DNA of 64,000 bases from Dehalococcoidia bacterium (GCA_965217675.1 OZ244559.1:962126-1026125); one strand, 5' to 3'; shown: positions 7,486-59,419, counted from the stretch's first letter. Program-made: numbers and translations. The notes: generated from the sequence alone by a model not told the origin.

Positions 7486-7703
7486 CTGACACGGCGCCCT
7501 TGCCCCAGCCACTCGCCCCACGATACTGTCCTCGCATGGACAACACTGCCGCCCAGCGCAAGTGGGTCGCCAAAGGCATCCGGACGCCCGCCGGAGAGCA
7601 GACCCGGTTTTGCCCCAAAAGAGCTCGTGTCAGCAGGAACGAGTCGTATCTGGAACGGGGTTTTTGGATAGGACTCGTTTCCCAGACTTCAGAAAAAGAT
7701 TGA
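7486..7703 (+). repeat. Dispersed intergenic element, copy A (head plus 55-codon ORF)
   Basis: CTGACA 7486 - 32 nt - TACTGT - 6 nt - ATG 7536; same geometry as at 19491, 29504 and 29851 (minus strand). Confidence 0.5.
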
Positions 7704-7849
7704 TCTGCGCGTATCTGCCCGAATACGCTTTGGTTACCCCATTCAATTAGACTCGTCTATAAACGCTTCGGCGCAACACTGATTCCGGGCCCGCCGCCGT
7801 CTTGGGGAGGGGCAGCGGCCGCCGACTCTGGACTCCCGAACGACTGCCC

Positions 7850-9271
7850 CTAGCTCACCGGCGGGCGGCGCTGCGCCCACGGGTGCGCGGCCTCCAGCGC
7901 GGCAGAGGCGCGGAGGACCGTCGCTTCTTCCGCGTAGCGCCCGATAAGCTGCACGCCGATGGGGAGACCGCCGCTGGAAAACCCGTAGGGCACGCTCGCC
8001 GCCGGTTGACCGGTCATGTTGGCAAGGTAACAGAAGGGCGTGAAGGCCCAACGTGGCTCCACCGAGACGCCGTCTATGGTGTCCGGCCAGCCCTCAATTG
8101 GGAAGGCGGGCACGGCGTTGACGGGACTGAGCACAAGGTCGTGGGTGAGGAAGACGCTGCGCATGACCCCGTTGAAACGCTCCATCTCCCGAAGGGCGCG
8201 GGCAAGGTCCGCAACTGTCCACCGCAGGGCATCCTCCAGGTAAGTCCGCATAGTGTCCATCAGCAGGTCTGCGTGGGTATCTAGCAGGTGGCCCGTGCCT
8301 GCCGACATGTCGCTGACGAAGATGGTGCGAAAGGACTCCCGTAGCGTCCTGCCATCTACTTCCGGGTCGATCTCATCGACCTCCGCGCCGAGGTCCGCGA
8401 GCAGCCCCGCGGCGTCGCGGACGACGGCGCGCACCTCGGGGTCGACGGGCATGCGGCCGATGCTGGGAGCGTAGGCGATACGCAGACCCTTGACGCTGCC
8501 GTCCAGCCCCTCCGTGAAATCGGGCGGATCCTCCAGGATGGACATGGGGTTCTCCGGGAAAGGGCCCGCTATGACGTTTAGGAGCATGGCTGCGTCACGG
8601 ACGTCGCGCGAAAGCGGACCAGCCACGCCAAAGATGTTCCAGCCGCCCGGACCGCTGTAGCTGCTCGGCACGCGGCCCCGCGACGGCTTGAAGCCGTAGA
8701 CCCCGCAGAAATTGGCGGGCACGCGGATTGAGCCCCCGCCGTCGCTGCCCTGGGCAATGGGCGACAGCCCCGACGCCACCGCTGCCGCCGAGCCGCCACT
8801 GGAGCCGCCCGGTGTCATTGTTGGGTCCCACGGATTGCGGCACGGGTCGCCGAGGAGATTCTCGGTCGTGCCCCGGTGACCGAACTCAGGGGTGTTGGTC
8901 TTGCCGACAACGATGCCGCCCCCAGCCTTGATACGGGCCACAACCATGTCGTCGACGGTGGGAACGTCGTCTTTGTAAATGAGAGAACCACGGGTGGTTC
9001 GGATTCCCGCAGTGCGGCTGAGGTCCTTGATGGGAACAGGGATGCCGTGAAGCGGGCCCATGGCCTCGCCGCGAAGTGCGTGCTCCTCGGCCTGCTTGGC
9101 TGCCGCGATCGCCTCGTCGCCGCACACGGTAAGGAAGGCGTTGAGCTTTGGGTTGAGTTCCTCGATGCGCCGGAGCATGTGGGTGGTCAGATCCACTGGC
9201 GAAAGCTGTCCCGCCGCAATCCACTCTCGAAGCTGCCAGGCAGGGGTGAACGACAGATCGACGTTGGTCAC
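7850..9271 (-). CDS. Amidase signature family protein
   Basis: GPLHGIPVPIKDL, GKTNTPEFG, GGSSGGSAAAVA, GSDGGGSIRVPA. Confidence 0.92.
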   Translation of the reverse strand: MTNVDLSFTPAWQLREWIAAGQLSPVDLTTHMLRRIEELNPKLNAFLTVCGDEAIAAAKQAEEHALRGEAMGPLHGIPVPIKDLSRTAGIRTTRGSLIYKDDVPTVDDMVVARIKAGGGIVVGKTNTPEFGHRGTTENLLGDPCRNPWDPTMTPGGSSGGSAAAVASGLSPIAQGSDGGGSIRVPANFCGVYGFKPSRGRVPSSYSGPGGWNIFGVAGPLSRDVRDAAMLLNVIAGPFPENPMSILEDPPDFTEGLDGSVKGLRIAYAPSIGRMPVDPEVRAVVRDAAGLLADLGAEVDEIDPEVDGRTLRESFRTIFVSDMSAGTGHLLDTHADLLMDTMRTYLEDALRWTVADLARALREMERFNGVMRSVFLTHDLVLSPVNAVPAFPIEGWPDTIDGVSVEPRWAFTPFCYLANMTGQPAASVPYGFSSGGLPIGVQLIGRYAEEATVLRASAALEAAHPWAQRRPPVS

Positions 9272-9485
9272 AATGGGGCCTCCTCCGGAGGCCTAGGCTA
9301 GGCCAAAAGGGTGAGGGGCGCAACTGTATTTGCGTTGACTACGATGTGGCGCTCTGGTACCTTGAAATTGCCACAGATCGACGCGATGTAGGGCGCAAGG
9401 CCCCGCGTCTTCCATGCCACCAACGACCACGGTGTACGCTTCTGGCCCCGAGCCGCAGCAACCATGGCGTCCGTGAGGAGTAGCG

Positions 9486-10853
9486 TTGAACTACACAAGT
9501 GCGTTGCGTCACGTATTGGGCCTGGCGGACCTGGAACGTATGGTGGAGCCGCCCGGCGCCCGCCCCCGTTACGACCTCGGCCGCATGCACGCGTTGCTCG
9601 ACGCGCTGGGCCGACCCCACCTGTCGACGCCCACGGTGCATGTAACAGGCACCAAGGGAAAGGGCAGCACCTCGGCCATGGTGGCGTCCATTCTCCGGTC
9701 GAGCGGGTTCACCGTCGGACTGTACACGTCGCCACATCTGCACACCATGCGCGAGCGCGTGAAGGTAAACGGTGAACCGCTGTCGGAGGAGGACTTCGCC
9801 GCGACTGTTGAGGCGGTGTGGCCGTCTGTGGAGGCACTGATCAGTGAAGGCGTCACCACCTTTGAGACGCTGACGGCCATGGCCTTCTACGCCTTCGCTA
9901 AGCGGCGGCTTGACTGGCAGGTGCTTGAGGTGGGAATGGGCGGCACACTGGACGCCACCAACACGGTGGAGTCGCCGCAAGTGTGCGTCATCACATCCAT
10001 CAGCCTGGACCACATGAAGATTCTCGGCGACACGGTGGAGGCCATCGCGCGGGACAAGGCCGGCATCATCAAGCCGGGAGCGACGGTGGTGACGGCGCCG
10101 CAGCCGCCGGGGGTCATCGCAGTGCTGCAGGAGGCGTGTGACGTGGCCGGCGCCGAGCTGGTGCAGACCGCTGAGCGCTACGCCTGGCGCGTTACCGGTT
10201 TCGACTTGCGCGGCCAGTCCTTCCACGTAGAGTGTCAGGAGGTCTCGTGGGAGTGCTGGCTTCCCCTTCTGGGCGAGCACCAAGTTGAGAACGCCATGTG
10301 CGCCATTGCGGCAGCGGAGGCGCTGGCAGCGCGAGTCGCAGCTGTGTCGAACGACGCCGTGTTGCAAGGACTCGCCGAGGTGTCATGGCCGGCTCGTCTA
10401 GAGATCCTGGCAGAGCGGCCCCTGGTGATAGTTGACGGGGCGCACAACCCATACTCGGCGGAAAGGCTTGTGGAAGCCGTCGAACACTATTTTGGCGCAC
10501 GGCGGCGGGTGCTGTTGTTCGGGGCGTCGCTGGGGCATGACCTGCGGGGCATCGTTCAGGCGCTGGCCGCGTTGGAGCCGGAGGCCGTCGTCGTGACGGC
10601 GTCGAGGCACCCTCGGGCAGTGGCCATGGATGTGCTTATGGAGGAGTTTCGCCTTGCGGGTATGTCGGTGCAGTGGGGCGGCAGCGTGGCAGAGGGATTC
10701 GCGAAGGCAAGAAACCTCGCTGGGCCGGATGACCTGGTGATGGCAACCGGGTCGTTGTTCACTGCCGTGGAAGTGCGGGAGTGCCTGTTTGGCATCCCGC
10801 CAGAGGAGTACCCTGAGTTTCAGGACATTCGATTTTCTTCACGGGTGAGGTAA
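9486..10853 (+). CDS. folC: Bifunctional folylpolyglutamate synthase/dihydrofolate synthase
   Basis: HVTGTKGKGST, YTSPHL, TTFE, EVGMGGTLDATN, IAxDKAGIIK, WPARLE, DGAHNP; TTG start. Confidence 0.93.
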   Translation: MNYTSALRHVLGLADLERMVEPPGARPRYDLGRMHALLDALGRPHLSTPTVHVTGTKGKGSTSAMVASILRSSGFTVGLYTSPHLHTMRERVKVNGEPLSEEDFAATVEAVWPSVEALISEGVTTFETLTAMAFYAFAKRRLDWQVLEVGMGGTLDATNTVESPQVCVITSISLDHMKILGDTVEAIARDKAGIIKPGATVVTAPQPPGVIAVLQEACDVAGAELVQTAERYAWRVTGFDLRGQSFHVECQEVSWECWLPLLGEHQVENAMCAIAAAEALAARVAAVSNDAVLQGLAEVSWPARLEILAERPLVIVDGAHNPYSAERLVEAVEHYFGARRRVLLFGASLGHDLRGIVQALAALEPEAVVVTASRHPRAVAMDVLMEEFRLAGMSVQWGGSVAEGFAKARNLAGPDDLVMATGSLFTAVEVRECLFGIPPEEYPEFQDIRFSSRVR

Positions 10854-10856
10854 ACG

Positions 10857-12104
10857 GTGGCAGAGCGAAAAAGAGTTGTCATAACGGGAATGGGCGTCTT
10901 AAGCCCACTGGGCGAGTCCTTGGAACAGTATTGGGACGCGCTGGTGCAGGGGCGCTCCGGCATTGGGCCAATGACGTTGTGCGACCCAACGGGGTTTCCG
11001 TGCCGCATTGCCGGTGAGGTCACAGGCTTTGACCCCGCAAGCTACATGGACGGCAAAGAGGCGCGACGGATGGCACGGTTCTCGCAGTTGGCCGTAGCCT
11101 CGGCCGTGCGGGCCATGGAGCATGCCGGTTTGAACGGTTCCAACATGGACCCGGAGGAAGCTGGAGTGCTGATGGGCAACGGCAACGGCGGCATGCCAGT
11201 CACGGAAGAGAACGCACGGGTGCTCTTTGAACGCGGCGGCATGAAGGAATCGCCGTTCTTCATCCCAATGGTGCTGCCCAACATGGCGGCGGCGCACGTA
11301 AGCCGGCTGCTGGGGCTGAAGGGGTATACCAACACCGTAATCACAGCGTGCGCCGCTGGGACGCAGGCCATCGGCGAGGGGGCAGAGGTGATCCGGCGCG
11401 GCGCCGCCAAGGTCATTGTCAGCGGCGGTACAGAGGCGGGAATCTGCCAGCTGTCCCTGGGCGGGTTCAGCGTCATCAAGGCGCTCTCTTCCAACAACGA
11501 GGATCCGGCGAAGGCCAGCAGGCCCTTTGAGGCGCGCCGAGACGGATTCGTGCCCGGCGAAGGCGCGGGGGCCTTCGTCTTGGAGGAGATGGAGTTCGCC
11601 CTGAGCCGCGGCGCCAACATTCTTGCGGAGGTTGTCGGATACGGCGTTTCTTCCGATGCCTTCCACCCGGTGCATCCTGACGATAACGGCGACGGCGCGG
11701 CGCGGGCGATGCGCTGGGCGCTGGCCGATGCGGGAGTGCGTCCGTATGAGGTCGACTACATCAACGCGCACGGGACGTCGACGCCGATAAACGACGCAGT
11801 GGAGACCCTGGCCATCAAGCAGGTGTTCGGTGACGGAGCGTACAACGTGCCCATCAGCTCCACCAAATCGATGATTGGGCACGCGATGGGCGCGGCGGGA
11901 GCTGTCGAGGCCGTGGTGGCGGTGAAGACCATCGAGACGGGCATCATTCACCCGACCATCAACTACGAGGACCCGGACCCGGCTTGCGACCTGGACTACG
12001 TGCCCAACGTCGCAAGGCGGGCGGACGTGCGCACAGTGCTGTCAAACAGCTTCGGATTCGGCGGTCAAAACGCCTGCCTGGTCATTCGCCGGTTCGAGGA
12101 GTAG
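10857..12104 (+). CDS. fabF: 3-oxoacyl-ACP synthase II
   Basis: VVITGMG, TACAAG, DGFVPGEGAG, DYINAHGTST, STKSMIGH, SNSFGFGGQNA. Confidence 0.95.
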   Translation: MAERKRVVITGMGVLSPLGESLEQYWDALVQGRSGIGPMTLCDPTGFPCRIAGEVTGFDPASYMDGKEARRMARFSQLAVASAVRAMEHAGLNGSNMDPEEAGVLMGNGNGGMPVTEENARVLFERGGMKESPFFIPMVLPNMAAAHVSRLLGLKGYTNTVITACAAGTQAIGEGAEVIRRGAAKVIVSGGTEAGICQLSLGGFSVIKALSSNNEDPAKASRPFEARRDGFVPGEGAGAFVLEEMEFALSRGANILAEVVGYGVSSDAFHPVHPDDNGDGAARAMRWALADAGVRPYEVDYINAHGTSTPINDAVETLAIKQVFGDGAYNVPISSTKSMIGHAMGAAGAVEAVVAVKTIETGIIHPTINYEDPDPACDLDYVPNVARRADVRTVLSNSFGFGGQNACLVIRRFEE

Positions 12105-12117
12105 CGGCGCGGCCGAG

Positions 12118-12363
12118 CTAGCGCGCGGAGAACTCCGCCGGGATCATGCCGCCGAGTTGTGCGTCCACCGCCATCGTGTGGCTGCAAGTGTGGTGGGTCG
12201 CGAAGAAGGCGCACTCACAACGCCACGTGCCGCCGTCGTAGGTGAGTGTGTGGTCTGAATGATCGCCGTGAAAGAGGACTGTGAACTTCAGGAGTGTGAC
12301 ACGCCCGGGGTCCTGAGCGTACCGCTTGGCTTTCTCTATCTTGCCAATGATCCCAGAGTTCAT
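12118..12363 (-). CDS. Small SWIM-type zinc-finger protein
   Basis: 81 aa; CxC...CxH pattern (CECAFFATHHTCSH). Confidence 0.75.
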   Translation of the reverse strand: MNSGIIGKIEKAKRYAQDPGRVTLLKFTVLFHGDHSDHTLTYDGGTWRCECAFFATHHTCSHTMAVDAQLGGMIPAEFSAR

Positions 12364-12507
12364 GCTCCCTCCTGGCTACAGATTGCTTAAGGCGCCATTC
12401 TAGAGAAACGATTGGATGAGGTCAACGACAATTTAATGGAGATTTGCGACGTTGGCGGTGCTGGTGAAGAGGGGCGGAATGTGGATTCACACGTAGTTCT
12501 TGGCCAC

Positions 12508-12536
12508 TTGACAAAGTCTTTGGCAGCCCGTACTGT
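12508..12536 (+). promoter_or_regulatory. Sigma70-type promoter for pyrG
   Basis: TTGACA (12508) - 17 nt - TACTGT (12531). Confidence 0.65.
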
Positions 12537-12689
12537 TTCGTTTTGTACGAGAACGCGCGTATCAGCCAAGGGTCCCCTGGGTTGGGGACGACGGCTCCCC
12601 CACCCTCAGCCCACTGGTTTCCACGTAGCACCAGCCAAGCCTCCGTTGTCGCATACCGCTCACATGCCGGGAGAAAGCGGCTGCCCCGT

Positions 12690-19092: not shown

Positions 19093-19340
19093 TGGGCAGG
19101 GTGAATTGTTTCTGAAGCCTGCCTCCGATCATAGCTGAGCAGGGGCGGATTGTTTTCAAACAATTGCCTTTCGTCGTAGCTGGGCAGGGGTGGATTGTTT
19201 TCAAACAATTGCCTCCCGTCGTAGCTGGGCCGAGGGAGTTGTTTCGAAACAATCGTAGCTGGGTGAGACTTTGTTTGGGAAACAATCTCGTAGCTGAACT
19301 GCGGGGTCTCGAATACGGCAATTGAATTGTTTCAGGAAGA
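19093..19340. repeat. Tandem array of degenerate 34-45 bp units with TAGCTG and TTGTTT-N2/3-AAACAA palindromes
   Basis: TAGCTG at 19132, 19177, 19222, 19256, 19291 (periods 45, 45, 34, 35). Confidence 0.85.
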
Positions 19341-19548
19341 TGTTCTTCTAGGGATGCACACCCGGGATCTTTCACGCGCGCTGTCAGGAGCGTCGGGTTG
19401 CAGCGGGGTATGCCCGAAATTGAGAGTGCGTGGTGTTCCATAAGGCAAACGTAGCCGCGCGAGGGAGAGCGGGACATGGGGATGGTGTCAGGGCGTCGGT
19501 GCGTGGGGGCAGTTTCCACCCGCTGGACGCCTTGGGCGGGCCGACGAG

Positions 19549-19833
19549 CTACCAACTAAAATGCAATTCCAGCACGTCCTCCGTCGTCCACGGAAGCGAG
19601 TTCAGCCAGGCCCAGATAGCGGCCTCTTCCTTGAATGGCACCTTGCGCTCTCTACAGAAATCCCGCAGCAGCCGTCGCAGCGGGCGCCGCTCGAAGTAGA
19701 GGTACGCCTCGCCCTCGGCGCGCGCCCACTCCCCGGCCTCCCAGTCCTGAGCCATCTCCCTCGCGAAGTCATACGCGAGGCCCTTAGTGATGTCCAAGTA
19801 CTGAAAGGACATGATGCCCATGTGGAGGGACAT
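19549..19833 (-). CDS. Hypothetical protein (94 aa)
   Basis: ATG after GGGGG; own sigma70-like promoter; GC3-rich codons; no recognised motif. Confidence 0.7.
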   Translation of the reverse strand: MSLHMGIMSFQYLDITKGLAYDFAREMAQDWEAGEWARAEGEAYLYFERRPLRRLLRDFCRERKVPFKEEAAIWAWLNSLPWTTEDVLELHFSW

Positions 19834-19851
19834 GGCTAACCCCCTACTGCA

Positions 19852-19891
19852 AAGTGGTCCAGGACCATAAGCAGCAAGGGGGGATTGTCAA
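19852..19891 (-). promoter_or_regulatory. Sigma70 promoter overlapping GGTCC-W-GGACC repeat (copy 1)
   Basis: TTGACA (19886-19891) - 16 nt - TATGGT (19864-19869); GGTCC 19856 and GGACC 19862. Confidence 0.65.
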
Positions 19892-19920
19892 GGGGAGCGA
19901 AAGCGGAAGGAAGAGAGTCG

Positions 19921-20676
19921 TTAGAAGTCAAGAATGCTGGTCTGAGCCGTATCGATAAGCTCTTGTAATTCGCGAAAGGTGCCCGGCCCGCCGATATTGT
20001 CCCACATCTCCTCACCAATCAAGACTTCCTGCGTCATATCCATCACCCGCTTTGTAATATTGTGTCCATATGCCTCGCGAGTTATGAAAGGGTTGTATGT
20101 GAGTCCCATGAATGCCCTGGCTGTCGGAATGCCCCGGCGTGCCATCATGGTTTCAAATGTGAGCATTTTCCGTTTGGATTCCGCCACCATGTCCAGGTTT
20201 GGCCTGGGAGTTTTCAACTCGATGAACAATGGCCCGGTGGTGTAGTCTTCTATGTACAGGTCGGCAGTTACGGCCATGTTGAGAATACCGCCACCACCGG
20301 AACCCAATATCTCGCTGCGTTCTGCATCGTGGTTTGGGTTCCTGCGCCTCCCGGAACGCAACTCATTGGCGATTTGAGCAATCATGTTGCTTGCCGCATC
20401 ATTCAACTGGCCAGTGATCTCATGTTCAAGGTTGACCTTGCTGAATCGGTCCAAAGCAATTGCTTCAGCCAACTTGGGATAGAGTGTACTTCCCATGGAG
20501 GTAACGATGCTGCGCTCAAGACGGGCGGCCAGTATGGCCTGATCCGGAAATACGAGTCTATGGAACGGGTAGGCAGTCCGTAAGTCCGTTGCGGCCAAGC
20601 TTTCAATCTTGGGCCGTTGCGAAAGCACAAACTGCTGCATGATGGTGATGATCCTTTGCCGAGTGCTTTCCTTCAT
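19921..20676 (-). CDS. Type II restriction endonuclease, TdeIII/MjaII-like
   Basis: RSIVTSMG, ADLYI...FIELKTPRPN (PD-ExK), GLTYNPF, LIGEEMWDNIGGPGTF; ATG overlaps MTase TGA; visibly lower GC. Confidence 0.75.
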   Translation of the reverse strand: MKESTRQRIITIMQQFVLSQRPKIESLAATDLRTAYPFHRLVFPDQAILAARLERSIVTSMGSTLYPKLAEAIALDRFSKVNLEHEITGQLNDAASNMIAQIANELRSGRRRNPNHDAERSEILGSGGGGILNMAVTADLYIEDYTTGPLFIELKTPRPNLDMVAESKRKMLTFETMMARRGIPTARAFMGLTYNPFITREAYGHNITKRVMDMTQEVLIGEEMWDNIGGPGTFRELQELIDTAQTSILDF

Positions 20677-21869
20677 CCCCGCTCTCTCTCCCAAATGAGG
20701 ATGCTCTCGTAGAATTCGTCCGCACGACGCCCGGTCCTGCGGTTCACGTGCCGCTTTAGGACGTCCACGCACCGGAACCCGGCCTTATCCGCAACTTGCC
20801 CATAGAGATCGAACTTGTCGTTAACTACGATGACGACAATACCGTTAGGGTGAAGTGACTGCCGGAGGTTGCTGAATACGGCAGCCATGTCATCCACGTA
20901 TTCCTGTCGCGCACGGCCTGAATTACCTCTGTTGGCAGGGCCTATGTCTTGTTCCCCTGCCCAGGGAAGTCCAAGAAGTTCGTAGGCGTAGCGGTGCTGC
21001 TCGTGGTAATCGATTAGTCCGACATAGGGGGGTGAGGTGAAAACGAGATCATGATGGGGAAATGGGAACTTACGGGCATCGCCGTGCTTCACGTCCGCTG
21101 ACACACCGTCTCGTGTCCCGGCGAACTCGCTTATGCGACGAAGCGTGTCCAAGCTATAGCGTTTGAGAAACTGTGCTGCGTTAGTTGTGGGTCTACATGT
21201 TCGACTGTGCTTGTAGCAATAATACGGTTCCTTCTGAGGGCGTTTGGGGAAGTCAAGATCAAAGTGGGTCGTTTGTCGCGCAGAACGGGCCGCGCGAGAC
21301 AAAATGACCTGCAAAACTTCTTGGTTCCGGTAATCAGGGATAAGAGAACGGAAACTCTCTAAGTCTCTTAGTGCGTCAGCATGGAACCATTCGGTCAAAT
21401 AAGGGTCTGGATAGTAGCTATCAGCATCTTCAAAAATGGCCAACTGCTGCGAGCTCAACGCCCGCCGAACTATGTCATTGATCTCCGAGTCCAAAAGCTC
21501 TAGGTCGTATTTGGCCGTTTTGACCCGGGTGAGAAGGCAATTGAATTCAGAGATATCACATCCGAACGACGGGATGCCAAGCGCAAGAGCCTGTACCAGT
21601 GTGGTGCCTGACCCACAGAAGGGGTCGCATACTACCGAAGGACGGTACTTGCGCAGGAATATCTCAGCTAGCTGAGGGATGAACTTGCCTTAGTAGGGAT
21701 GTAGACGGTGGACGTGCTTTGTGCGGATTCTCTCCGGAAGGTCCTTCTCGGTCCAATTCAGGTTGAGGCTTTGGAGATGAGTGTCGGGGGTGATGGACTC
21801 AAAGTCCGTGAAGGGGACCAAGGGCAGATGAGGACTTGAAAAAGCATCCCTGCTCGGCGCTCGAGCCAA
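20673..21869 (-). pseudogene. N4-cytosine DNA methyltransferase (M.MjaII-like) interrupted by an in-frame TAA at 21690-21692
   Basis: TTG start after GGGAG; one frame reads TKHVHRLHPY*GKFIPQL...DPFCGSGTT...FTSPPY. Confidence 0.8.
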
Positions 21870-21886
21870 TCCGTTCTCCCCGCGTT

Positions 21887-21927
21887 AAGTGGTCCTGGAC
21901 CTTAAGGACCACCGCGCGGAGTGTCAA
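21887..21927 (-). promoter_or_regulatory. Sigma70 promoter of the R-M operon containing three GGWCC sites (repeat copy 2)
   Basis: TTGACA (21922-21927) - 17 nt - TAAGGT (21899-21904); GGWCC at 21891, 21897, 21906. Confidence 0.7.
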
Positions 21928-22005
21928 TGGGGGCGGAGGGCTGGTTTTGCGGGAACCGAGCGGGGCTTGGCGTGAGGCGGGCCGGGCGGCTTGGGGCGAC
22001 GCCGC

Positions 22006-22227
22006 CTACAGCCCAAAGAAGTATTTGACGGCGATGGCAACCAGCACCCCAAGCATCGCGATAGCGACGGCTTTAATGATCTTCAATTCACCTTCCACGT
22101 GGCTTATGCGACCGCCTAGCTCTGTGTGCACCGTGCCGATGTACGCGGTCAACTCCTGGTGCTGCCGCGCGTTCTCCTGTACAAAGTCAGAGAAGTATTT
22201 GGGGACGTTCTGCTCTTGCGTCGTCAT
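22006..22227 (-). CDS. Small coiled-coil membrane protein, short paralog
   Basis: 73 aa; N-terminus almost identical to 23715-24122; C-terminal TM helix. Confidence 0.8.
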   Translation of the reverse strand: MTTQEQNVPKYFSDFVQENARQHQELTAYIGTVHTELGGRISHVEGELKIIKAVAIAMLGVLVAIAVKYFFGL

Positions 22228-22288
22228 GTGTGGTTCCTTTTCATCGGTACCCTTATTGTGCGCGGGGCGTGTGGGGCCGTCAACGCCC

Positions 22289-23629
22289 CTACCCCAGCCG
22301 CTCCGCCAGCGCCGAGGGCAGTTCCGCTATCGTCACCCGCTCCTGCAAGAGGGTGTCCCGGTCCCGGATCGTCACCTGCGCGTCGTCCAGCGACTCGAAG
22401 TCAACGGTGATGCAGAGGGGCGCGCCCACCTCGTCGAAGCGGCGGTAGCGGCGGCCGATGCTCTGGGCGTCGTCGTACTCCACGCGCCAGCGGCCGTCGT
22501 CCACCAAGCCGGCGAAAACCTCGCGGGCAAGGGGCGTCAGGCGGGCGTTGCGGCTCAGGGGCAGCACCGCAGCCTGCACGGGCGCGATGCGGGGGTGGAA
22601 TCGCAGCACCACGCGCGCCTCACCGGCGCCGGCGCCCGCAGCCTCGCCGCCCACCTCCTCCTCGTCGTAGGCGTCCACCATGAAGGCGAGGGCCGCGCGG
22701 TCGACGCCGCTGGCGGGCTCGATGACGTAGGGCGTAACGTGCTGATTCGTGTCGTTGTCGAAGTAGGTCAGCCGTGCGCCGCTGTGCGCCGAGTGCTGAC
22801 GCAGGTCGAAGTCCGTCCGGTTGGCGATGCCCTCGAGCTCCGCCCAACCCCAGGGAAAGAGGTACTCGACGTCCGTGGTCGCCTTGGAGTAGTGCGAGAG
22901 CTCGTCGGCGTCGTGGGGGCGCAGCCGGAGGTTCTCGGCGCGGACGCCGTGGCGCACGTACCAATCGAGCCGCTCCTTGATCCAGTAGTCGTGCCAGCTC
23001 TCGTCCTCGCCGGGTTGCACAAAGAACTCCATCTCCATCTGCTCAAACTCGCGGGTGCGGAAGATGAAGTTGCCGGGGGTGATCTCATTGCGGAAGGACT
23101 TGCCTATCTGCGCGATGCCGAAGGGCAGCTTCTTGCGAGTGGCGGTCTGCACGTTCAGGAAGTTCACAAACATGCCCTGGGCCGTCTCCGGGCGCATGTA
23201 GACGGTGCTGGCCGTGTCCTCCACGGCGCCCAGGAAGGTCTTGAGCATTAAGTTGAACTGGCGGGCGTCGCCGAGCGCACCCCCGCAGTCAGGGCACTCG
23301 GACGACTCGACGTGGTCGGCGCGAAAGCGGTGACGGCACTCGCGGCACTCGACGAGGGGGTCGGTGAAGCCAGCGAGGTGGCCCGAGGCCTCCCACACGG
23401 CGGGGTTCATCATGATGGCGGCATCCAGCCCGACGACGTCCTCTCGGCGTCGCACGACGTCGCGCCACCAGGCCTCCTTGACGTTGCGCTTGAGCTCGAC
23501 GCCCATGGGGCCGTAGTCCCACGCGTTTGCGAGGCCGCCATAGATCTCGCTGCCGGGGAAAACGAAGCCCCGCCGCTTGCTCAGCGAGACAATCTTGTCC
23601 ATGGTGACGGCACGGGGGGCGTCAGACAC
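22289..23629 (-). CDS. glyQS: Glycine--tRNA ligase (single-subunit type)
   Basis: KRRGFVFPGSEIYGG, YMRPETAQGMF, GIAQIGKSFRNEI, FIFRTREFEQME, ELEGIANRTDFDL; GTG after GGAGG. Confidence 0.95.
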   Translation of the reverse strand: MSDAPRAVTMDKIVSLSKRRGFVFPGSEIYGGLANAWDYGPMGVELKRNVKEAWWRDVVRRREDVVGLDAAIMMNPAVWEASGHLAGFTDPLVECRECRHRFRADHVESSECPDCGGALGDARQFNLMLKTFLGAVEDTASTVYMRPETAQGMFVNFLNVQTATRKKLPFGIAQIGKSFRNEITPGNFIFRTREFEQMEMEFFVQPGEDESWHDYWIKERLDWYVRHGVRAENLRLRPHDADELSHYSKATTDVEYLFPWGWAELEGIANRTDFDLRQHSAHSGARLTYFDNDTNQHVTPYVIEPASGVDRAALAFMVDAYDEEEVGGEAAGAGAGEARVVLRFHPRIAPVQAAVLPLSRNARLTPLAREVFAGLVDDGRWRVEYDDAQSIGRRYRRFDEVGAPLCITVDFESLDDAQVTIRDRDTLLQERVTIAELPSALAERLG

Positions 23630-23714
23630 GGGTACCTCCGAGGGGTGTGATGTGGAACGGGCTGCGAAAAGCGTAGCAACGGCGGGTGTGGATGTAAAGC
23701 GAGGGGGAAGGGGC

Positions 23715-24122
23715 CTAGAGGCCGAAGACGTATTTGATGACTGCGACGGCCACGGCGGCAAAGATCGCCACCGTTGCACCAAGCATCGCGACGCTGACGG
23801 CCTTGATGATACGGAGTTCGCCCTCCACGCCGCCGATGCGGGTGCCGAGGCTTGTCTCTACACCGCCGATGCGGGTGCCGAGGCTTGTCTCCACACTGCC
23901 GATGCGGGCGGTCAAGGCCGTCTCCACGCCGCTGATGTGGTTGCCAAGGCTTGTCTCCACCCCGCTGATGCGGTTGCCAAGGCTTGTCTCCACGCCGCTA
24001 ATGCGGGCGGTCATGGCCACTTCTACACCGCTGATGCGGTCTGCCAACTCCTGGTGTTGACGTGCGTTCTCCTGCACGAAGTCCGAGAAGTACTTGGGAA
24101 CGCTTTGCTCTTGCGTCGTCAT
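23715..24122 (-). CDS. Coiled-coil membrane protein with seven 11-aa repeats, long paralog
   Basis: RISGVETSLGN-type units (33-bp period) then a TM helix. Confidence 0.8.
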   Translation of the reverse strand: MTTQEQSVPKYFSDFVQENARQHQELADRISGVEVAMTARISGVETSLGNRISGVETSLGNHISGVETALTARIGSVETSLGTRIGGVETSLGTRIGGVEGELRIIKAVSVAMLGATVAIFAAVAVAVIKYVFGL

Positions 24123-28844: not shown

Positions 28845-29153
28845 TGGGTTTCCTCCTATGTCAAGGGTACCATAGGCGTATCGGAGCGGAAACCTTCCCA
28901 CCACCCGCTACCGTCACTCCCGTGCCCTCCTCAGCGTCATCCCCACCCCCTCAGCGCCATTCCTTCGAAGGCATGAACAGAGGGGCGTAGGGCAGTGGTG
29001 GGGCTGCCCCACCACCAACAACCGTCGCGGATCCTCTAACGCCAACCCTATCGCTCTTCCCTCTTGACGGCGGGGGGCGGGACTTGTCGCAGTGCGCGAG
29101 AGTTGCGTTGTCCATGCGCGGAGGGTTACGCGGGATGCAGCGCCGGGTTGGGG

Positions 29154-29857
29154 GCGCGAATGACGATGAGGTGGGCTCGAGACGGGCGAGCGTTTGGGCT
29201 CCTTGACGGGGTTGGGGCGTCGTTGAGGGACATTTGTTTCTCGGACAGGCGTAGCTGCGGCGGATTCGTTTGGGAATCGTGTTCTGTCGCATTGCAGCTA
29301 CAAGTCGAAAAATGCTATGCCCTAATCCCGCTTGTTGCGTGTCGAGCCGCCTCTGACTGTGGATGCAGACTGCGCCACCGACAAGTGGGCCGGCGGCGCC
29401 GTCGGCGTGGGGGTTGTCGATGTTCCGGTGGCGGTGGCTGCGTGCGATTGCCATGAGGGGACGATAGTGCGGACCGGAGCGTCGGAGCAATGAGGCGGTG
29501 TCAAGGGAGCGCGAATGACGATGAGGTGGGCACGAGACGGGCGAGCGTTTGGGGCGCGTCGAGAGATAATTGTTTCCCGCACGGGCGTAGCTGCGGCGGA
29601 TTTGTTTGGGAATCGTATTGGTAGCTGTTGTGCAACATTGCAGCTACAAGTCGAAAAATGCTATGCCCCAAATCTCTCTTGTTGCGTGTCGAGCAGCCCC
29701 TGATCGTGGATGCAGACTGCACCACCGACAAGCGGGCCGGCGCCCCCGTCGGCGTGGGGATTGGCGATGTTCCGGTAGCGATGGATGCGTGCGACGGCCA
29801 TGAGAGGACGATAGTGCGGACCGGAGCGTCGGAGCAAGGAGGCGGTGTCAAGGGAGC
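29154..29857 (-). repeat. Tandem duplication of a ~350-bp unit (copies C1 and C2 of the dispersed element)
   Basis: Units start at 29154 and 29509 (gcgcgaatgacgatgagg) and end in tgtcaagggagc. Confidence 0.9.
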
Positions 29858-40365: not shown

Positions 40366-40992
40366 CTAGGCCGGCCGGACCTTCACTGTGCCGTCCCACT
40401 CGCTGAGCGGGGCGCAGTGCCACCACCAGTTGGGCGCCTGCCGCTCCTTTGCACCGAGGGGCGCGCGGCCGACGGCATAGAGCAGCGCCTCCCATGGGTC
40501 GCCCTCGTCCTGCACCCACGGGAAGAGCCGGGCGAGCGCCTTGGCTGGGATCTCGGGCGGCGGCTCGAAGTCGAGTCCCAGCCCCTGCGCGATGTCCGAA
40601 GCGTGCACCAGCGTCTCGGTGCAGGCCATGGCCGCGAATCCGTGTCGGTCGGCGAGCCCCGCTGGGTGGAAGCCGCGCGCGTCCTCCGGCATCGAGCGGA
40701 GCACGGCGGCGAGCACGGTGGCCAGCGCCCGGTGGAGCGTCACCAGCTCGGCTACCGACTGGTCGGGGTTGTTGGTGCGCGCGCCCGGCAGCCGGCTGCG
40801 CGACTCGTTGGCCGCGTTGGAGGCCAGGAAGATCTGGACGGTGGTGACGTGCTCCAGCGTCTGGCGGCAGTCCCAGTCCAGGTCACCGGCGATGACGGAC
40901 CAGTCGAGGCTCGCCAGCGTCGCGAAGAGTTGGTAGGCGATTTCGGCGGCGACTACGACGTCGTCCGGGCCGGGTTCGTGCAGGTCTTCCAT
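40366..40992 (-). CDS. MDMPI_N/DinB-superfamily protein, paralog 1
   Basis: DLDWDCRQTLEHV, ETLVHASDIAQGLG, ARLFPW. Confidence 0.75.
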   Translation of the reverse strand: MEDLHEPGPDDVVVAAEIAYQLFATLASLDWSVIAGDLDWDCRQTLEHVTTVQIFLASNAANESRSRLPGARTNNPDQSVAELVTLHRALATVLAAVLRSMPEDARGFHPAGLADRHGFAAMACTETLVHASDIAQGLGLDFEPPPEIPAKALARLFPWVQDEGDPWEALLYAVGRAPLGAKERQAPNWWWHCAPLSEWDGTVKVRPA

Positions 40993-41071: not shown

Positions 41072-41698
41072 CTAGCCCTGGCGGACCCTGACGTCACCCT
41101 TCCACTCGCTCAGGGGCGCGCATTGCCATGACCAGTTTGGGGCCCGCCGCTCATTGCCGCCCAGGTTCCGCCGTCCCGCGGCGTAGAGCAGCGTCTGCCA
41201 CGGGTCGCCCTCGTCCTGCACCCACGGGAAGAGGCGTGCCAGCGACTTCGCGGCGATGTCCTCAGGCGGCGTGAAGTCGACGCCGAGACCGCGCGCGATG
41301 TCCCACGTGTGCACGAGCGATTCTGTGCAGGCCATCGCGGCGAAGCCGTAGCGGTCGGCGAGCCCGGCGGGGTGAAAGCCCCGCGCGTCCTCCGGCATGG
41401 CGCGCAGCACCGCGGAGAGGACGTTGCTCAATGCGAGGTGGACCTGGACCAACTCGCCTATAGACTGGCTCGGATTGTTGATGCGGGCAGTTGGCAGGCG
41501 GCGCTGCGACGGATCGGCGGCGTGAGTGGCATAGAACAGCTGCACGAAGGCGACGTGCTCCAGGGTCTGGCGGCAGTCCCACTCGAGATCGCCGGCAATG
41601 ACGGACCAGTCTATGTTCGCAAGCGGGGACAGGAGGGCGTAGGAGGCCTCCGCGGCGGCTACAACTTCGTCCGGACCGGGTTCGCGCAGGTCATCCAT
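41072..41698 (-). CDS. MDMPI_N/DinB-superfamily protein, paralog 2
   Basis: DLEWDCRQTLEHV, ESLVHTWDIARGLG; same length (208 aa) as paralog 1. Confidence 0.75.
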   Translation of the reverse strand: MDDLREPGPDEVVAAAEASYALLSPLANIDWSVIAGDLEWDCRQTLEHVAFVQLFYATHAADPSQRRLPTARINNPSQSIGELVQVHLALSNVLSAVLRAMPEDARGFHPAGLADRYGFAAMACTESLVHTWDIARGLGVDFTPPEDIAAKSLARLFPWVQDEGDPWQTLLYAAGRRNLGGNERRAPNWSWQCAPLSEWKGDVRVRQG

Positions 41699-42168: not shown

Positions 42169-42169
42169 T

Positions 42170-45800: not shown

Positions 45801-45830
45801 GTGCCTAACACTGTCTAGCCTACAAGCATG

Positions 45831-45858
45831 CGCCCTTCGACAAGCTCAGGGCGAACGG
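45831..45858 (-). repeat. CGTTCGCCCTGAG-type dispersed palindromic repeat
   Basis: cgcccttcgacaagctcagggcgaacgg; nearly identical to 51231-51257. Confidence 0.75.
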
Positions 45859-45871
45859 GGTGGCGGCGCGC

Positions 45872-46750
45872 CTACACTTGGTCGGCGGGGCTGGTGAAGC
45901 CGACGCCGGAGCCAGCGTCGCGCGCGTCCCAACGGCCCGCTTCGACTGCGGTCAAGAAGTCGGCGACGGCGCGGTTAAACAGGTCGGGCTCCTCTACGTT
46001 GCAGGCGTGGCCCGTCTGCGGCAGCACCGCGATGCCGCTGCGGGGGATGCGGCGCTTCATGTAGATGGCGGGCTCCAGGCACGGGTCGTCCTCGTCCCCG
46101 AGGATGATCAGTGTTGGCACCTGCATGGCGCGCAGCTCCTCGTCGAGCGTCATGATGGAGCGCCTTCGCGCTTGGTAGCCACGCAGCGTCAGCGCCTTCC
46201 CCTGCGCTGAGTGGTCGGCAAAGAGGTCAGCGAACTCCTGCCATCCTCGGGGGTCCTTCTGCAGGAAGCGGATGCGCGTGGGGCCGCGAAGGTAGCCGCC
46301 CATGGCCGCCGTGCCGCCCGACTCCAGCGTCTCTGCGTAACCGATTGACTGCTTGTTGAACGTCTCGGGGTCGGTGCTGCCCGTTCCCGCGCCCGCGACG
46401 ATGATCGACTTCGCGACATCGGGGTGCGTGAGTCCAAACCAAAGGGCCATGTTGCCGCCCATGGAAAGCCCGGCGACGTGCGCCTGCTCGATGCCGAGAT
46501 ACTGCAAGAGCTGGTGCAGGTCCTCCACCACCTGTTCCTGCGAGTAATCATCCACGTTCGGGGGAACGTCCGACGGCGGGTAGCCGCGGGCGTTGTAGGT
46601 GATGACACGGTACCGGCGCGAGAAGTAGCTTACCTGGGCGCGCCAGCTCTCGTAGCTGCCCGCAAGCTCGTGGGCGAAGACCAGGGGGAAGCCCTGTCCC
46701 GTCTCTTCGTAGTAGAGGCTGACGCCGTTTTGCAGTTGTGCCACCGGCAT
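45872..46750 (-). CDS. Alpha/beta hydrolase
   Basis: LVFAHE, YNARGYPPS, GLSMGG nucleophile elbow, GDEDD, GHACNVEEP. Confidence 0.9.
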   Translation of the reverse strand: MPVAQLQNGVSLYYEETGQGFPLVFAHELAGSYESWRAQVSYFSRRYRVITYNARGYPPSDVPPNVDDYSQEQVVEDLHQLLQYLGIEQAHVAGLSMGGNMALWFGLTHPDVAKSIIVAGAGTGSTDPETFNKQSIGYAETLESGGTAAMGGYLRGPTRIRFLQKDPRGWQEFADLFADHSAQGKALTLRGYQARRRSIMTLDEELRAMQVPTLIILGDEDDPCLEPAIYMKRRIPRSGIAVLPQTGHACNVEEPDLFNRAVADFLTAVEAGRWDARDAGSGVGFTSPADQV

Positions 46751-46931
46751 GGCATTGCTCCAGTCTCGCGCATGTGGGATGCGCGGTTTCATGGTCTCGT
46801 GGGCAGGGGCAACGTAGCTGCCGTGTGGGACGGTGTCAAGGCGGGGCGCCCTCTCGTCGCCCAGTCCGCCCGCCGCATGACGCGTCGGCCCGCGTGGGGT
46901 ATGCTATGGCCAGCTTTACAAGGAGCGGCGA

Positions 46932-51187: not shown

Positions 51188-51230
51188 AGAAGCACCCGCG
51201 CCTCTTCACGGACTTGCCGTTTAGGATTGT

Positions 51231-51257
51231 GCCCTTCGACAGGCTCAGGGCGAACGG
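51231..51257 (-). repeat. CGTTCGCCCTGAG-type dispersed palindromic repeat
   Basis: gcccttcgacaggctcagggcgaacgg. Confidence 0.75.
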
Positions 51258-51293
51258 GCAGGAGAGGGGCCCACGCGAACGGGAGAAAGAGGG

Positions 51294-52281: not shown

Positions 52282-52284
52282 ACG

Positions 52285-53319: not shown

Positions 53320-53373
53320 GTGTGTATGTTCCTTTGCGATGTGGGTGCTGGAGCAGCGCTGGGGAGTGCGAGT

Positions 53374-54171: not shown

Positions 54172-54186
54172 GGCTGCCTACCTACC

Positions 54187-56415: not shown

Positions 56416-56472
56416 GGGGAAACCTCCTCTAGTCGTTGTGTGAGGAGGAAGGGGCCGTCCGCGTGAAGGTGG

Positions 56473-56736
56473 TTACCTGCGGAGACCGAGGTTGGTCAAA
56501 AGAGCGCGATATCGCGTGGGCGCGGTGCTGCCGATGTAGTTCAGCAGGCGCCGGCGTTGCCCAACAAGCTTCAACAGACCACGCCGGGTATGGTGGTCCT
56601 TTTTGTGGACTTGGAGGTGGCGGTTCAACTCATTGATGCGTCCGGTGAGGACCGCAATCTGGACGTCGGCTGAACCGGTATCCGTCGCGTGGGTCTTGAA
56701 GTTGCTGATGATGGCTTGCTTTTGCTCGATGTCCAC
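56473..56736 (-). CDS. rpsO: 30S ribosomal protein S15
   Basis: [40 protein letters not shown]. Confidence 0.97.
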
Positions 56737-56890
56737 GTTGCGTCGGGACCTATTCCTCTCTCATTCTGTCGCAGGGAGTATAGCATGCCCCTTTGCTTGT
56801 GGGAAGGGTCGGCCTGCAGGTGTTTCAGGGCGCGGGTCGCTGCTATCATTTGAGGGGTTCACACTACAACAGTCACGGAGGTACGCATCC

Positions 56891-57778
56891 ATGGCGGCGG
56901 AGATCATCAGCGGGACGGAGATAGCCAAGCAGGTGCGGGCGGAGGTTGCCGAGGGCGTGGCGGCCCTTACGGCGTCGACGGGCGCCGCACCGGGGCTCGC
57001 GGTGGTGTTGGTCGGCGACGACCCGGCATCTGCAGTCTACGTCCGCAACAAGGGCCGCGCCGCCGAAGAAGTCGGCATTTTCTCCGAGACCTACACGCTG
57101 CCGCAGGAGACGCCGCAGGACGTCGTCGTCGACCTGGTGCGTCGGCTGAACGCCGACGAGCGCTTTCACGGCATCCTGGTGCAGTTGCCGCTGCCGCCGC
57201 AGGTGAACGAAGAGGCAGTGCTCTACACAATCGACCCGGAGAAGGACGTCGACGGCCTGCACCCGTTCAATCTAGGCCGGTTGGCCGCCGGCAACCCCAC
57301 CTTTGTGCCGTGTACGCCCGCGGGGGTGCAGGAAATGCTCGTGCGCTCCGGCCATGACCCGGCGGGCAAGCACGTGGTCGTTTGCGGGCGCAGCAACATC
57401 GTCGGCAAGCCCGTGGCGATGCTGCTGCTCCAGAAGGCCGCAGGGGCCAACGCCACCGTAACCGTCTGCCATACGGGCACACGAGACCTCGGCGAGATCA
57501 CGCGGCAGGGCGACATCCTCATCGCGGCGGCGGGCCGTCCCGAGTTCATCACCGCGGACATGGTGAAGGAGGGTGTCGTGGTCATCGACGTGGGCATCAA
57601 CCGCGTTGACGACCCCTCGCGGGACCGGGGCTATCGCCTGACGGGCGACGTCGACTTTGGGCCGGTATCGGAGGTGGCCTCCGCCATCACGCCGGTGCCG
57701 GGTGGTGTCGGGCCGATGACCATCGCTATGCTGCTGAAGAACACACTGCAGTCTGCGCGTCGCGCCGCAGGGGGTTAG
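56891..57778 (+). CDS. folD: Methylenetetrahydrofolate dehydrogenase/cyclohydrolase
   Basis: [68 protein letters not shown]. Confidence 0.97.
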
Positions 57779-59061
57779 CACCTGTAGGGAATGTGACCGG
57801 GGTACTCCGAATGCTCTGCGTTGCTGTACCAGCAGTCATAGTAGGCACGAGCTCCTTCATAGCGGGCAAATGCCTGCTCATAATGGGCAACCGCTCGACT
57901 GAAACGGTCGAGCGCTCTATCCCAATCGGCCAACGCCTGATCCCTGCGCTCGCGAGCCTGATTCACGTAGACCAGGTAAGTCTGGCAGAGGAAGACGTTT
58001 GAGCAGATTGAAATTGAGGTTGATAGATAGGAGTTGTATTCATCTCGTGCACGATAATAGGCGTTCTTGGCGGCCGTGAGGGAGATCTCAGCGGCGCCAA
58101 CGGCATTCTCCGCGGCTGGAAGTGCATTCCTCGCCGCTTCGTAGGCAACCATCGCCGAGTTAACGTTGTTGCGCAGGGTGGCGTTTTCCGGTCTCGTATT
58201 CTTGTGGACTTCAATCATGTATCCATTCACGGCCGTGTGCGGCACCCAACACCCGTCAGCCTCGCTGTTGGCGTCACCCTTGGGCCAAAAAAAGTAGATG
58301 CCATTTCTGTAGCTAGTGTCCACCACCCGGTGGGATGTGTTGCTGTGAGCTGGCTCATCAGGCCAGCAAGCTTGGCTCTCGAAGGCGATTACCGTCCCTA
58401 CGACGATGTCTGCCGGGTCAAAGTCCAGCAAATACGTGGCAGTGTCCAGGCATGTCTTCTTTGGTTCCATACTGCCGGTGCAAAAACTCCCGCGCTCTGC
58501 AGTCCTTGCCAGAATTAGGGGCTTGTGCCGTGCCTCCAGCCGGGCAATCTCCGTCCGCAGGGTGCCGGCCGTGCTTTCCAGGTCCGCGACGGTGCCGTTC
58601 ACCAACCGCCACGTCTCGTACTCTTGGTCCAGGGCAGTGAACTTCGTGCTCAGTTGGTCGTGCTCCTGCTCCAAGTGGCTGTACCGGCCTGCCAGCACGC
58701 TCTTGTCATGGGCCAGTGTGCGGTTCTCCTCTGAGAGGCCATGCACCTGCGTGTTGACGTCACCCAACTCCCTACGAAGCTCATCCTGGAGAACGATGGC
58801 CGCTGCCAGGTCGCCCGTGAGCGTCTCGTTGGTGGTCTGTGCAGCCGTGAGGGATGCCTCCAGCGTGCCCTTCTCAGTGTCCAGCCGCGCAATGGTCTCC
58901 CGCAGGTTCTGCGCCTGGGCACCCAATGCGGCGTTGCGGGCGATGGTCTCTTTCAAGCTGGCGTTGGCTTGGCCGAGCTCCACGAACAGGTAGCCGACGC
59001 CGGAACCCACGATGGCCACAAGCACGACGACAACAGCGACAAGTACGCGCGTTCTTTTCAT
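57775..59061 (-). CDS. Membrane-anchored coiled-coil protein with central S26 (SipW-type) peptidase-like domain
   Basis: N-terminal TM; heptad-rich aa 30-180; TGSMEP...GTVIAF...HRVV...KGDAN; C-terminal helical hairpin. Confidence 0.7.
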
Positions 59062-59419
59062 CGTGGTCCTTCCTCCTCCTTCCAGAGACCAAGCGGCAGT
59101 CCAGTAGGTCTAAGTCGAAGAACCCCCTGCCACGACACTCTTGCCCCGGCGTTTCGCCCCTCGCTACCCTCCCCGCATGGGGCAGGCCTCTGCCGCGTGA
59201 CGGAAGCCCTGCAGGTGAGGTTGAATGGGTGACCGACATCCGAATTGTCTCCCACGGGAATACCTTCTTGAAATCCAAGAAGCCGTAGCTGGAAACGAAT
59301 CCCTCAGATACGAGGGCGACTGTAATAGTCAAATCCCCTGCCAGCACCAAGCTGGCCTCCCGCCGTCAGCGAGGCAGGGTCATACATGGGTCTTCCTCTG
59401 CGGGAATAGGGGCGCAACC

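Follow-up and report, generated by a model that had tools for sequence, protein, structure and literature searches.

Intergenic units with a promoter-like head and a conserved two-helix module in a clade of Dehalococcoidia

Modular intergenic repeats of bacteria include the pneumococcal BOX elements (boxA-boxB(n)-boxC) and the Correia elements of Neisseria, while REP/REPIN sequences are short, G+C-rich palindromes with a GTAG motif that are mobilised by RAYT transposases. Promoters may also recur, and near-identical promoter regions upstream of unrelated genes have been described as reused or 'mobile' promoters (PMC3575422). For high-GC bacteria the published signature of leaderless genes is the motif TAnnnT some 10 nt ahead of the start codon; in Actinobacteria and Deinococcus-Thermus it lies about 6–7 nt ahead (PMC3160421). 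The stretch analysed here is 64,000 nt of a Dehalococcoidia bacterium (GCA_965217675.1, OZ244559.1:962126–1026125; the window), and it carries members of a family of intergenic units of about 300 bp, each made up of a conserved promoter-like head of its own and a non-coding body, most often with a conserved two-helix fold at its end. The balance of evidence tips slightly (a probability of roughly 0.55) towards a family, specific to one clade, of non-coding RNA units that carry their own promoters, are transcribed independently, were duplicated as DNA and are now partly decaying.

A preliminary description of the window had noted a head of the form YTGACA-N32-TANNNT-N6-ATG at 7486 (+), 19491 (−), 29504 (−) and 29851 (−). 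The spacing is exact at all of these coordinates, and four matches against 0.00 in 100 dinucleotide shuffles place the pattern far above chance, against the possibility, raised there, that it is no commoner than in shuffled intergenic DNA. Four loci had been listed, of which three stand as independent strict loci, since the matches at 29504 and 29851 belong to one 347-bp tandem repeat. A head profile made from 110 copies from other genomes, the window being left out, found exactly five heads in the window; the top score in block-shuffled windows was 11 bits. The fifth head lies at 59 kb on the + strand, beside a patch previously described as headless, the body of which had been read on the wrong strand. 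The head alignment is gap-free across about 56 nt, and the four loci (7.5, 19, 29 and 59 kb) are all intergenic. The heads are as follows.

7484–7538, + strand: head A, with CCCTGACAC at 7484–7492, TTGCCC at 7500–7505, TACTGT at 7524–7529 and ATG at 7536–7538; profile match 7470–7561 (+), E = 2e-14.
19439–19493, − strand: head B, with TACGTT and ATG at 19441–19439; profile match 19515–19428 (−), E = 3.8e-5.
29799–29853, − strand: head C1, upstream unit of the tandem pair, with CCTTGACAC, TTGCTC, TATCGT and ATG at 29801–29799; profile match 29858–29777 (−), E = 1.2e-9.
29452–29506, − strand: head C2, downstream unit of the tandem pair, with ATG at 29454–29452; profile match 29519–29429 (−), E = 1.4e-11.
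59125–59179, + strand: head D, with CCCTGCCAC at 59125–59133, TTGCCC at 59141–59146, TACCCT at 59165–59170 and ATG at 59177–59179; profile match 59112–59185 (+), E = 4.5e-9.

Among 113 distinct head copies, most of the information content lies in four boxes at fixed spacing and the spacers are variable.

Box 1: CCCTGACAC, at about −52 to −44.
Box 2: TTGCCCC, 7 nt past CCCTGACAC.
Box 3: CCGCTACCnTC, which includes TAnnnT exactly 18 nt beyond TTGCCC.
Box 4: CATGGAA, the ATG of which lies 6 nt beyond TAnnnT.

In orthologous heads the boxes are unchanged and the spacers differ, which is the pattern expected for recognition by a protein. TAnnnT-N6-ATG is present in all five window heads and in 126 of 127 distinct profile hits (window plus fetched loci, the latter labelled L002, L003 and so on), a count to which the profile contributes by itself favouring ATG; the ATG is missing in L003 and L002.

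Judged by its sequence, the head, which spans about −57 to +13, most likely serves the housekeeping RNA polymerase as a promoter. The −35 element would most likely be the conserved TTGCCC box, which has 4/6 matches to TTGACA and lies exactly 18 nt upstream of TAnnnT, within the 16–19 nt of a sigma-70-type promoter. The −35-like hexamer 32 nt away, which the preliminary description found puzzling, thus reads as part of an additional upstream box (CCCTGACAC, containing YTGACA(C)) and not as the −35. Transcription would start at the A of the almost invariant ATG, 6 bases past the −10 TAnnnT, with an 18-nt spacer to TTGCCC, and the additional box at −52 to −44 is probably bound by a transcription factor or gives the polymerase a further contact. 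TANNNT-N6-ATG had been recognised earlier as leaderless-promoter geometry, in agreement with PMC3160421. Real genes do open at the ATG of the head in other Dehalococcoidia, not at the window copies: in L121 the N-terminal helix-turn-helix (HTH) Pfam domain of a TnpB aligns from residue 1, starting at the head ATG, and an AAA_25 protein and several small proteins with weak similarity to the terminase small subunit (TerS) start in the same way. Coding-type G+C at codon position 3 (GC3) follows the head ATG in L111, L104, L137, L143, L113 and L129. Ordinary genes of the window do not use the head promoter, as judged from the search of the window with the outside-genome profile. Three other identities for the head were considered and rejected. 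TGACAC-N7-TTGC resembles the sigma-54 motif TGGCAC-N5-TTGC, but by eye the GG is absent and the spacing is two bases too long. As a general stable-RNA promoter, a co-oriented head was seen upstream of tRNA genes only at the tRNA-Arg/Pro genes of L005/L100, with one further case at a signal recognition particle (SRP) RNA gene. The strict head pattern had 0 matches in viral contigs, which speaks against a phage promoter. An ordinary-looking promoter, CCTTGACAC-N16-TACGTT (TTGACA with a 17-nt spacer), was seen at 46792–46841 (−), 19 nt before the start codon (ATG) of an alpha/beta-hydrolase gene (45872–46792); here the CTTGACAC word is at the normal −35 distance.

Most copies of the family carry a conserved module of 128 nt, placed about 100–111 nt past the presumed start. 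It consists, in order, of GGaGGTTGTTTcc, an A-rich stretch, GGATTTGTAGCTG, a 13-nt loop, CAGCTACAAATCC, AATGCCAAAACAACC, and then CCGCAGCTACG and GAAACAA words. Two helices are formed by these parts: an outer helix, P1 (GGTTGTTT/AAACAACC), and an inner 13-bp hairpin, P2 (GGATTTGTAGCTG/CAGCTACAAATCC). Both were specified by hand, then built into a covariance model (R1) and tested. The model gave 70 matches in 840 kb of head-bearing loci, and in its alignment 81% of cells are paired, compared with about 40% when partners are slid. Changes on both sides of a pair occur in 119 cells against 57 in shuffles, a level reached by 0 of 500 shuffles, and whole-helix switches can be seen by eye (GGGACTCGTTTCC/AAACGAGTC and GGAATTGTT/AACAATTCC). 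Canonical copies folded singly again give P1 and P2. A head on the same strand lies at most 300 nt upstream, most often at 100–111 nt, in 55 of 66 modules, and a head on the opposite strand pointing at the module was found in 0 of 66; head and module therefore form one unit of fixed polarity. Rfam 15 gave no match at the loci at the gathering score, none at E ≤ 5 in the window and none at E ≤ 1 in seven loci whose modules are canonical, and no description was found in the literature, which bears out the earlier view that the family is undescribed.

A transcript of such a unit would begin with about 100 nt that are C-rich and G-poor (a bias seen in the first 50 nt after the head start), followed in most copies by the 128-nt module. 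In the module RNA, P1 would enclose the A-rich junction and the P2 hairpin, and at least one free CAGCTACG and GAAACAA words would follow. As a guess, the helix with the GUAGCUG/CAGCUAC core may be a protein-binding scaffold. A more elaborate proposal, which is a long shot, is that the family comprises at least 100 dispersed guide-like or regulatory RNAs that share one P1/P2 scaffold (the GUAGCUG/CAGCUAC core with free CAGCUACG words), differ in their C-rich 5′ segments and are co-activated by a single factor through the CCCTGACAC box. A search for complementary targets of the 5′ segments within the window returned non-significant matches only.

The open reading frames (ORFs) that begin at head ATGs lack a coding signal. 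They have G+C contents at codon positions 1/2/3 of about.60/.57/.63, against.70/.48/.83 in real genes, and among 16 paralogues of the subfamily that includes the 29-kb copies it is position 3 that is least and position 2 that is most variable (1246/1458/1004 pairwise differences at positions 1/2/3). Their length runs from 5 to 889 codons, the reading frame shifts between orthologues, ORF ends are not conserved, and the stop position and frame relative to the module hairpin look random. That the units encode a family of leaderless small proteins, such as precursor peptides conserved towards the N terminus and variable towards the C terminus, is very improbable on these grounds, although the ATG is exactly at the leaderless distance from TAnnnT, one subfamily translates to a recurring M-x-V-A-I-S-H-R-N... 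in many copies (both 29-kb copies included) and the 45-nt repeat at 19 kb equals 15 codons. The ORF at 59 kb has only 7 codons, and the two loci lacking the ATG also count against such a family. The small-peptide reading proposed earlier fails on codon variability, GC3 and unconserved ends, and relics of a protein gene family are not supported either. Ribosomally synthesised and post-translationally modified (RiPP-like) peptides were rejected for the same codon-position, GC3 and frame behaviour. A translation-coupled attenuator with a fixed stop in the hairpin was rejected as well, the P2 UAG being in frame in only 7 of 32 copies. In annotation, the long C-rich ORFs at head ATGs, which reach 889 codons, will probably be taken for genes of hypothetical proteins.

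The bodies in the window are the following.

7536–7735, + strand: body A, a predicted RNA of about 200 nt running toward a convergent amidase gene.
19095–19300, − strand: body B, five tandem mini-units of 34–45 nt, each consisting of CAGCTACG and a small hairpin, ATTGTTT-N2-3-AAACAAT.
29570–29690, − strand: module C1, with P2 TTGTAGCTG/CAGCTAC and a weak P1 (GATT/AATC), followed by a second CAGCTACG and GAAACAATT.
29234–29343, − strand: module C2, damaged, the 3′ arm of P2 being deleted; R1 score 62.7 bits with nine P2 pairs broken.
29095–29157, − strand: relic of a third unit, a degenerate head without the CTGACAC box, ending in ATGGACAAC.
59240–59316, + strand: body D, module-like, GAATTGTCTCCCACGGG ... 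CGTAGCTG-GAAACGAATCC-CTCAGATAC.

They show the module in four states: intact at 29.6 kb, lacking one arm at 29.3 kb, as a truncated variant at 7.6 kb, and as an amplified 3′ sub-module at 19.2 kb. The 7.5-kb unit lies between folK, with head A just past the stop codon, and the amidase gene, and its orthologues in L142 and L108 retain all boxes. Body A has a long, related hairpin (GGAACGAGTC, 7636–7645/GGACTCGTTTCC, 7671–7682), then an A-rich stretch, and a short terminator-like hairpin (GCGTAT/ATACGC, 7709–7728) followed by TTTGGTT; both hairpins are contained in the minimum-energy fold (z = −1.7). Head B is slightly decayed, with ATGTCC in place of TTGCCC, and its orthologues in L085 and L144 have the strict pattern intact. 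The repeat in body B has a period of 45, 2.5 copies and 86% matches, and the unit lies upstream of a 141-amino acid gene without a match in Pfam, PHROG, NCBIfam or PADLOC. Two known array types were rejected for body B. The units are unequal (34–45 nt) and the downstream 141-amino acid protein has no match in any of these four collections, unlike a ToxI-like type III toxin‒antitoxin system, in which RNA repeats of one length stand in tandem directly upstream of a ToxN-type toxin gene, and the units abut without unique spacers, with no cas gene recognised among the window proteins scanned, unlike a CRISPR array, whose equal repeats have unique spacers between them.

The two units of the 347-bp repeat at 29 kb (86% matches) lie between tRNA-Arg and mnmA. 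Module C1 scores 88.4 bits with R1 (E = 1.7e-17), and since both 29-kb copies sat in the R1 seed alignment neither score is independent. The 5′ arm of module C2 can pair with a distal GCAGCTACG instead, and the minimum-energy fold uses that partner. The sequence preceding head C2 recurs at the relic (29150–29198 versus 29505–29553, 96% identity), and the relic head (29157–29095) reaches only 8.7 bits with the outside profile, which is not significant alone. Head D has one mismatch (CTGCCA for CTGACA) and is 77% identical to the 7.5-kb head in a local self-comparison. Body D resembles the variant modules of L167/L102 by eye and has a weak R1 match (8.7 bits, E = 6.8); this unit lies between genes for a coiled-coil protein and a Rieske protein, both on the opposite strand. 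The word CAGCTACG occurs 13 times in the window against 1.6 expected, with 7 of the 13 inside the four loci, and the shared words CAGCTAC..TTCCCAAACAAA..CAGCTACG that were reported earlier are indeed present in the 19-kb and 29-kb copies.

In 185,579 species genomes (596 Gb), a scan with the strict pattern found the head in at least 109 stretches against about 9 expected by chance (our own estimate). Among the matches listed, nearly all are from the Dehalococcoidia clade of the window, including OZ252245.1, CBDHDD01, OX638292.1, CAXXKY01 and DAOUJQ01, and no head was present in 74 mnmA loci of more distant Dehalococcoidia. The density in the window, about one locus per 16 kb, extrapolates to more than 100 per genome. 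Going by the mnmA gene beside the 29-kb copies, the source is an uncultured, high-GC member of the Dehalococcoidia. The closest public genome is OZ252245.1 (97% protein identity in mnmA, 92–95% DNA identity in the flanks), and both it and CBDHDD01 carry the 7.5-, 19- and 29-kb copies at orthologous positions. No copy was gained or lost among the window and these two genomes over about 30 kb of shared synteny: the three loci are filled in each of them, and empty spacers are seen only in distant relatives. The spacer between tRNA-Arg and mnmA, for instance, is 58–176 nt long in distant relatives and 420–1130 nt in the element-bearing clade, where the unit faces mnmA in five genomes and the tRNAs in L004 and L005, the latter being the closest relative of the window. 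Tandem arrays of 2–5 units or modules occur elsewhere (L093, L178, L165, L167, L171); at L171 (6179–7290, −) one head is followed by five tandem modules with a period of about 129 nt, and then directly by the SRP RNA gene in the same orientation.

Conservation among copies extends upstream of the presumed start, so multiplication must have been through DNA. Growth by DNA duplication is seen directly in the tandem copies and was probably the means of dispersal too, after which copies would stay at orthologous sites and slowly decay. The same conservation, pointing to copying via DNA and not RNA, is compatible with a repeat that acts purely as DNA, akin to REP/REPIN sequences or miniature inverted-repeat transposable elements (MITEs), in which the hairpins serve in single-stranded form for a transposase encoded elsewhere and the head either marks the end of the element or is a passenger promoter that faces outwards, as in the Correia elements of Neisseria. 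High copy number (at least 109 stretches) in a single clade among the matches listed, tandem and dispersed copies of which some decay, the inverted tRNA-Arg/mnmA element in L005 and L004, and GTAG on both arms of the hairpin core, as in REP sequences, would all suit such a repeat, and the covariation is equally compatible with single-stranded DNA hairpins. We nevertheless regard it as unlikely. None of the four loci is flanked by terminal inverted repeats or target duplications, the inverted repeats there being internal hairpins and, at 59 kb, one chance pair of 10 nt, and the stability of copies across the three close genomes does not suggest mobility. Both strands are used within 64 kb, hence there is no replication-strand bias, and the conservation of head boxes and spacing is that of a promoter recognised by a protein rather than of an element end. 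The window has no transposase, as was stated before, and the sole head-bearing TnpB gene, that of L121, has an unrelated 3′ flank without a module, for which reason a TnpB/IS605-derived element was rejected. A direct repeat near the 19-kb unit (TTTYAGTTGGTAGC) was also discarded as a target duplication, being off the boundaries of both the element and the low-GC island that adjoins it.

The next gene downstream of a unit is co-oriented in 65 cases and convergent in 41, and the neighbours are unrelated housekeeping genes, from which it follows that the units are not obligate leaders. A cis-acting leader or attenuator would have the head as promoter of the downstream gene and the body as a long regulatory 5′ untranslated region, with read-through governed by translation that starts at the 5′ AUG, by the C-rich stretch, where Rho might load, and by alternative pairings. 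This would explain why 61% of heads point at a co-oriented gene 150–900 nt away, examples being mnmA and the 141-amino acid gene in the window, valS (L093), SRP RNA (L171), tRNA-Arg/Pro (L005) and a multi-copy 132-amino acid gene (CAXXKY01). The nearly invariant ATG and the C-rich, G-poor first 50 nt would fit too, as would the two alternative partners of the P2 5′ arm and the P1 5′ strand that pairs upstream or downstream in arrays. It is an improbable explanation all the same: the other 39% of units, the 7.5-kb and 59-kb copies among them, run towards the 3′ end of a convergent gene, downstream genes have no common function, ORF frame and stop position look random with respect to the module, and one and the same spacer holds the unit in either orientation in sister genomes. 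A consistent partner gene beside the arrays was looked for and rejected, the neighbours being valS, holA, a helicase, DUF805 and an oxidoreductase.

Several features of these neighbourhoods are worth recording. Directly upstream of the 19-kb head is a low-GC island (48–57% GC) of about 2.8 kb (19503–22274), absent from the syntenic regions of OZ252245.1 (L085) and CBDHDD01 (L144), with genes for a TdeIII-type type II restriction endonuclease (19921–20772, −) and a type II methyltransferase (20673–21494, −). The mnmA ORF as listed starts at GTG 28904, and relatives align only from about residue 5–27; in L005 a Shine-Dalgarno sequence precedes the ATG of MSTS..., and the true start in the window is probably the ATG of ...MSTSPGRVVV, about 60 nt downstream (28845–28904). 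In CAXXKY01 (L086–L090, L098, L109, L120) a leader of about 180 nt and a Shine-Dalgarno sequence lie between the head and a multi-copy gene of 130–132 amino acids (MNFSTLRRQVDALMLKYATK...), which has no Pfam match and may stand first in a mobile element that is repeated. At L132 (255–5741, −) at least five tandem pairs of genes for proteins of about 100 amino acids (102 plus 96–104), without Pfam matches, lie beside a head and module unit.

The RNA-unit interpretation given at the outset must be weighed against a number of observations that do not favour it. A scan with an E. coli-type consensus calls no promoter at any head, TTGCCC being below its threshold, and promoter activity and start point are read from geometry. 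A purely non-coding product leaves the near-invariant ATG unaccounted for. Folding energies are modestly better than those of shuffles (z = −0.5 to −2.2), with one window copy at z = +0.2, and RNAalifold predicted nothing on a structure-blind MAFFT alignment of the module, and only P2 for one subfamily. The covariation counts come from an alignment fitted to the R1 model, and the loci searched had been chosen by the head pattern itself. Of the five window bodies, three have no R1 model match, their homology being supported by short motifs and comparison by eye, and the decay visible in several copies suits neutral or selfish DNA no less than functional RNA genes. The analysis establishes the family, the arrangement of its boxes, the lack of a coding signal, the covariation and the constant spacing and strand of head and module; that the heads fire, that the product acts as RNA and what it would do are inferred. 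Of the options offered by the preliminary description, a small RNA or a non-autonomous repeat fits best, and the small-peptide and gene-relic options drop out.

Other repeats were noted in the course of the analysis. A second short family, CCCTTCGACAAGCTCAGGGCGAACGG, with a possible small hairpin, is present at 45829–45875 and 51228–51274, one copy being beside tRNA-Thr, and also in intergenic DNA of relatives (L005 2685–2712 and 2820–2850, L004, L093). A third repeat, ATTCCTGC..GCAGGAAT / CCCGCGAAAGCGGGAAT, was seen in relatives. At 23790–24053, a 33-nt tandem repeat (about 5.6–8 copies; also with a 99-nt period) lies in or beside an ORF at 23715–24122 (−) and adjoins a class II aminoacyl-tRNA synthetase gene (22289–23782, −). 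Two adjacent paralogous genes of the DinB_2/MDMPI_N type (40366–40992 and 41072–41698, −), each for 208 amino acids, are 76% identical over 300 nt.

If the heads fire, this uncultured soil- and sponge-associated group of Dehalococcoidia devotes much of its intergenic space to at least 100 copies of a promoter joined to a structured RNA. The family would then supply a ready and testable model of promoters in a phylum where such data are nearly absent, including a box (CCCTGACAC) outside the E. coli-type model, together with a new candidate RNA family that has covariation support, and a clean case in which to ask if bacterial repeats of high copy number act as genes, regulate their neighbours or are selfish DNA. 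Should the guide-like or regulatory RNA proposal hold, it would represent a new RNA-based regulatory or targeting system in Dehalococcoidia.

Compared with the promoters of leaderless genes, the heads have the same −10 TAnnnT followed by ATG after 6 nt, and genes do start there in other Dehalococcoidia, but most copies here precede non-coding DNA, and an extra CCCTGACAC box and conserved first transcribed bases are present. Mobile promoters are likewise one promoter family found genome-wide upstream of unrelated genes; the Dehalococcoidia family differs in a structured non-coding body of about 230 nt, a far higher copy number and units that in many cases are not directed at any gene, and no mobile element was seen beside the units. 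BOX and Correia elements are also intergenic, occur in about a hundred copies, form stable hairpins, can supply promoters to neighbours and are modular with a middle module in variable number (1–5 modules in the present family). There is no sequence similarity to them, however, and the Dehalococcoidia units are without terminal inverted repeats or target duplications, have a four-box promoter-like head at one fixed end and are stable at orthologous sites across species. REP/REPIN sequences share GTAG on both hairpin arms (here within GTAGCTG) and many long-persisting intergenic copies, whereas the stems here are A/U-rich, 13 bp long with a 13-nt loop, and the hairpin is at a fixed distance and strand from the promoter-like head; no RAYT gene turned up, no search aimed at RAYT having been made. 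Multi-copy small-RNA families are similar in having their own promoter, a length of 150–350 nt, tandem arrays of paralogues, and a structured, conserved 3′ part behind a more variable 5′ part. The Dehalococcoidia units, in contrast, are usually without a canonical terminator, and their copy number is 1–2 orders of magnitude higher, with many copies degenerate. What is new is that a four-box promoter-like head, a 5′ ATG that hardly varies, a two-helix module with covariation at a fixed distance and a very high copy number occur together.

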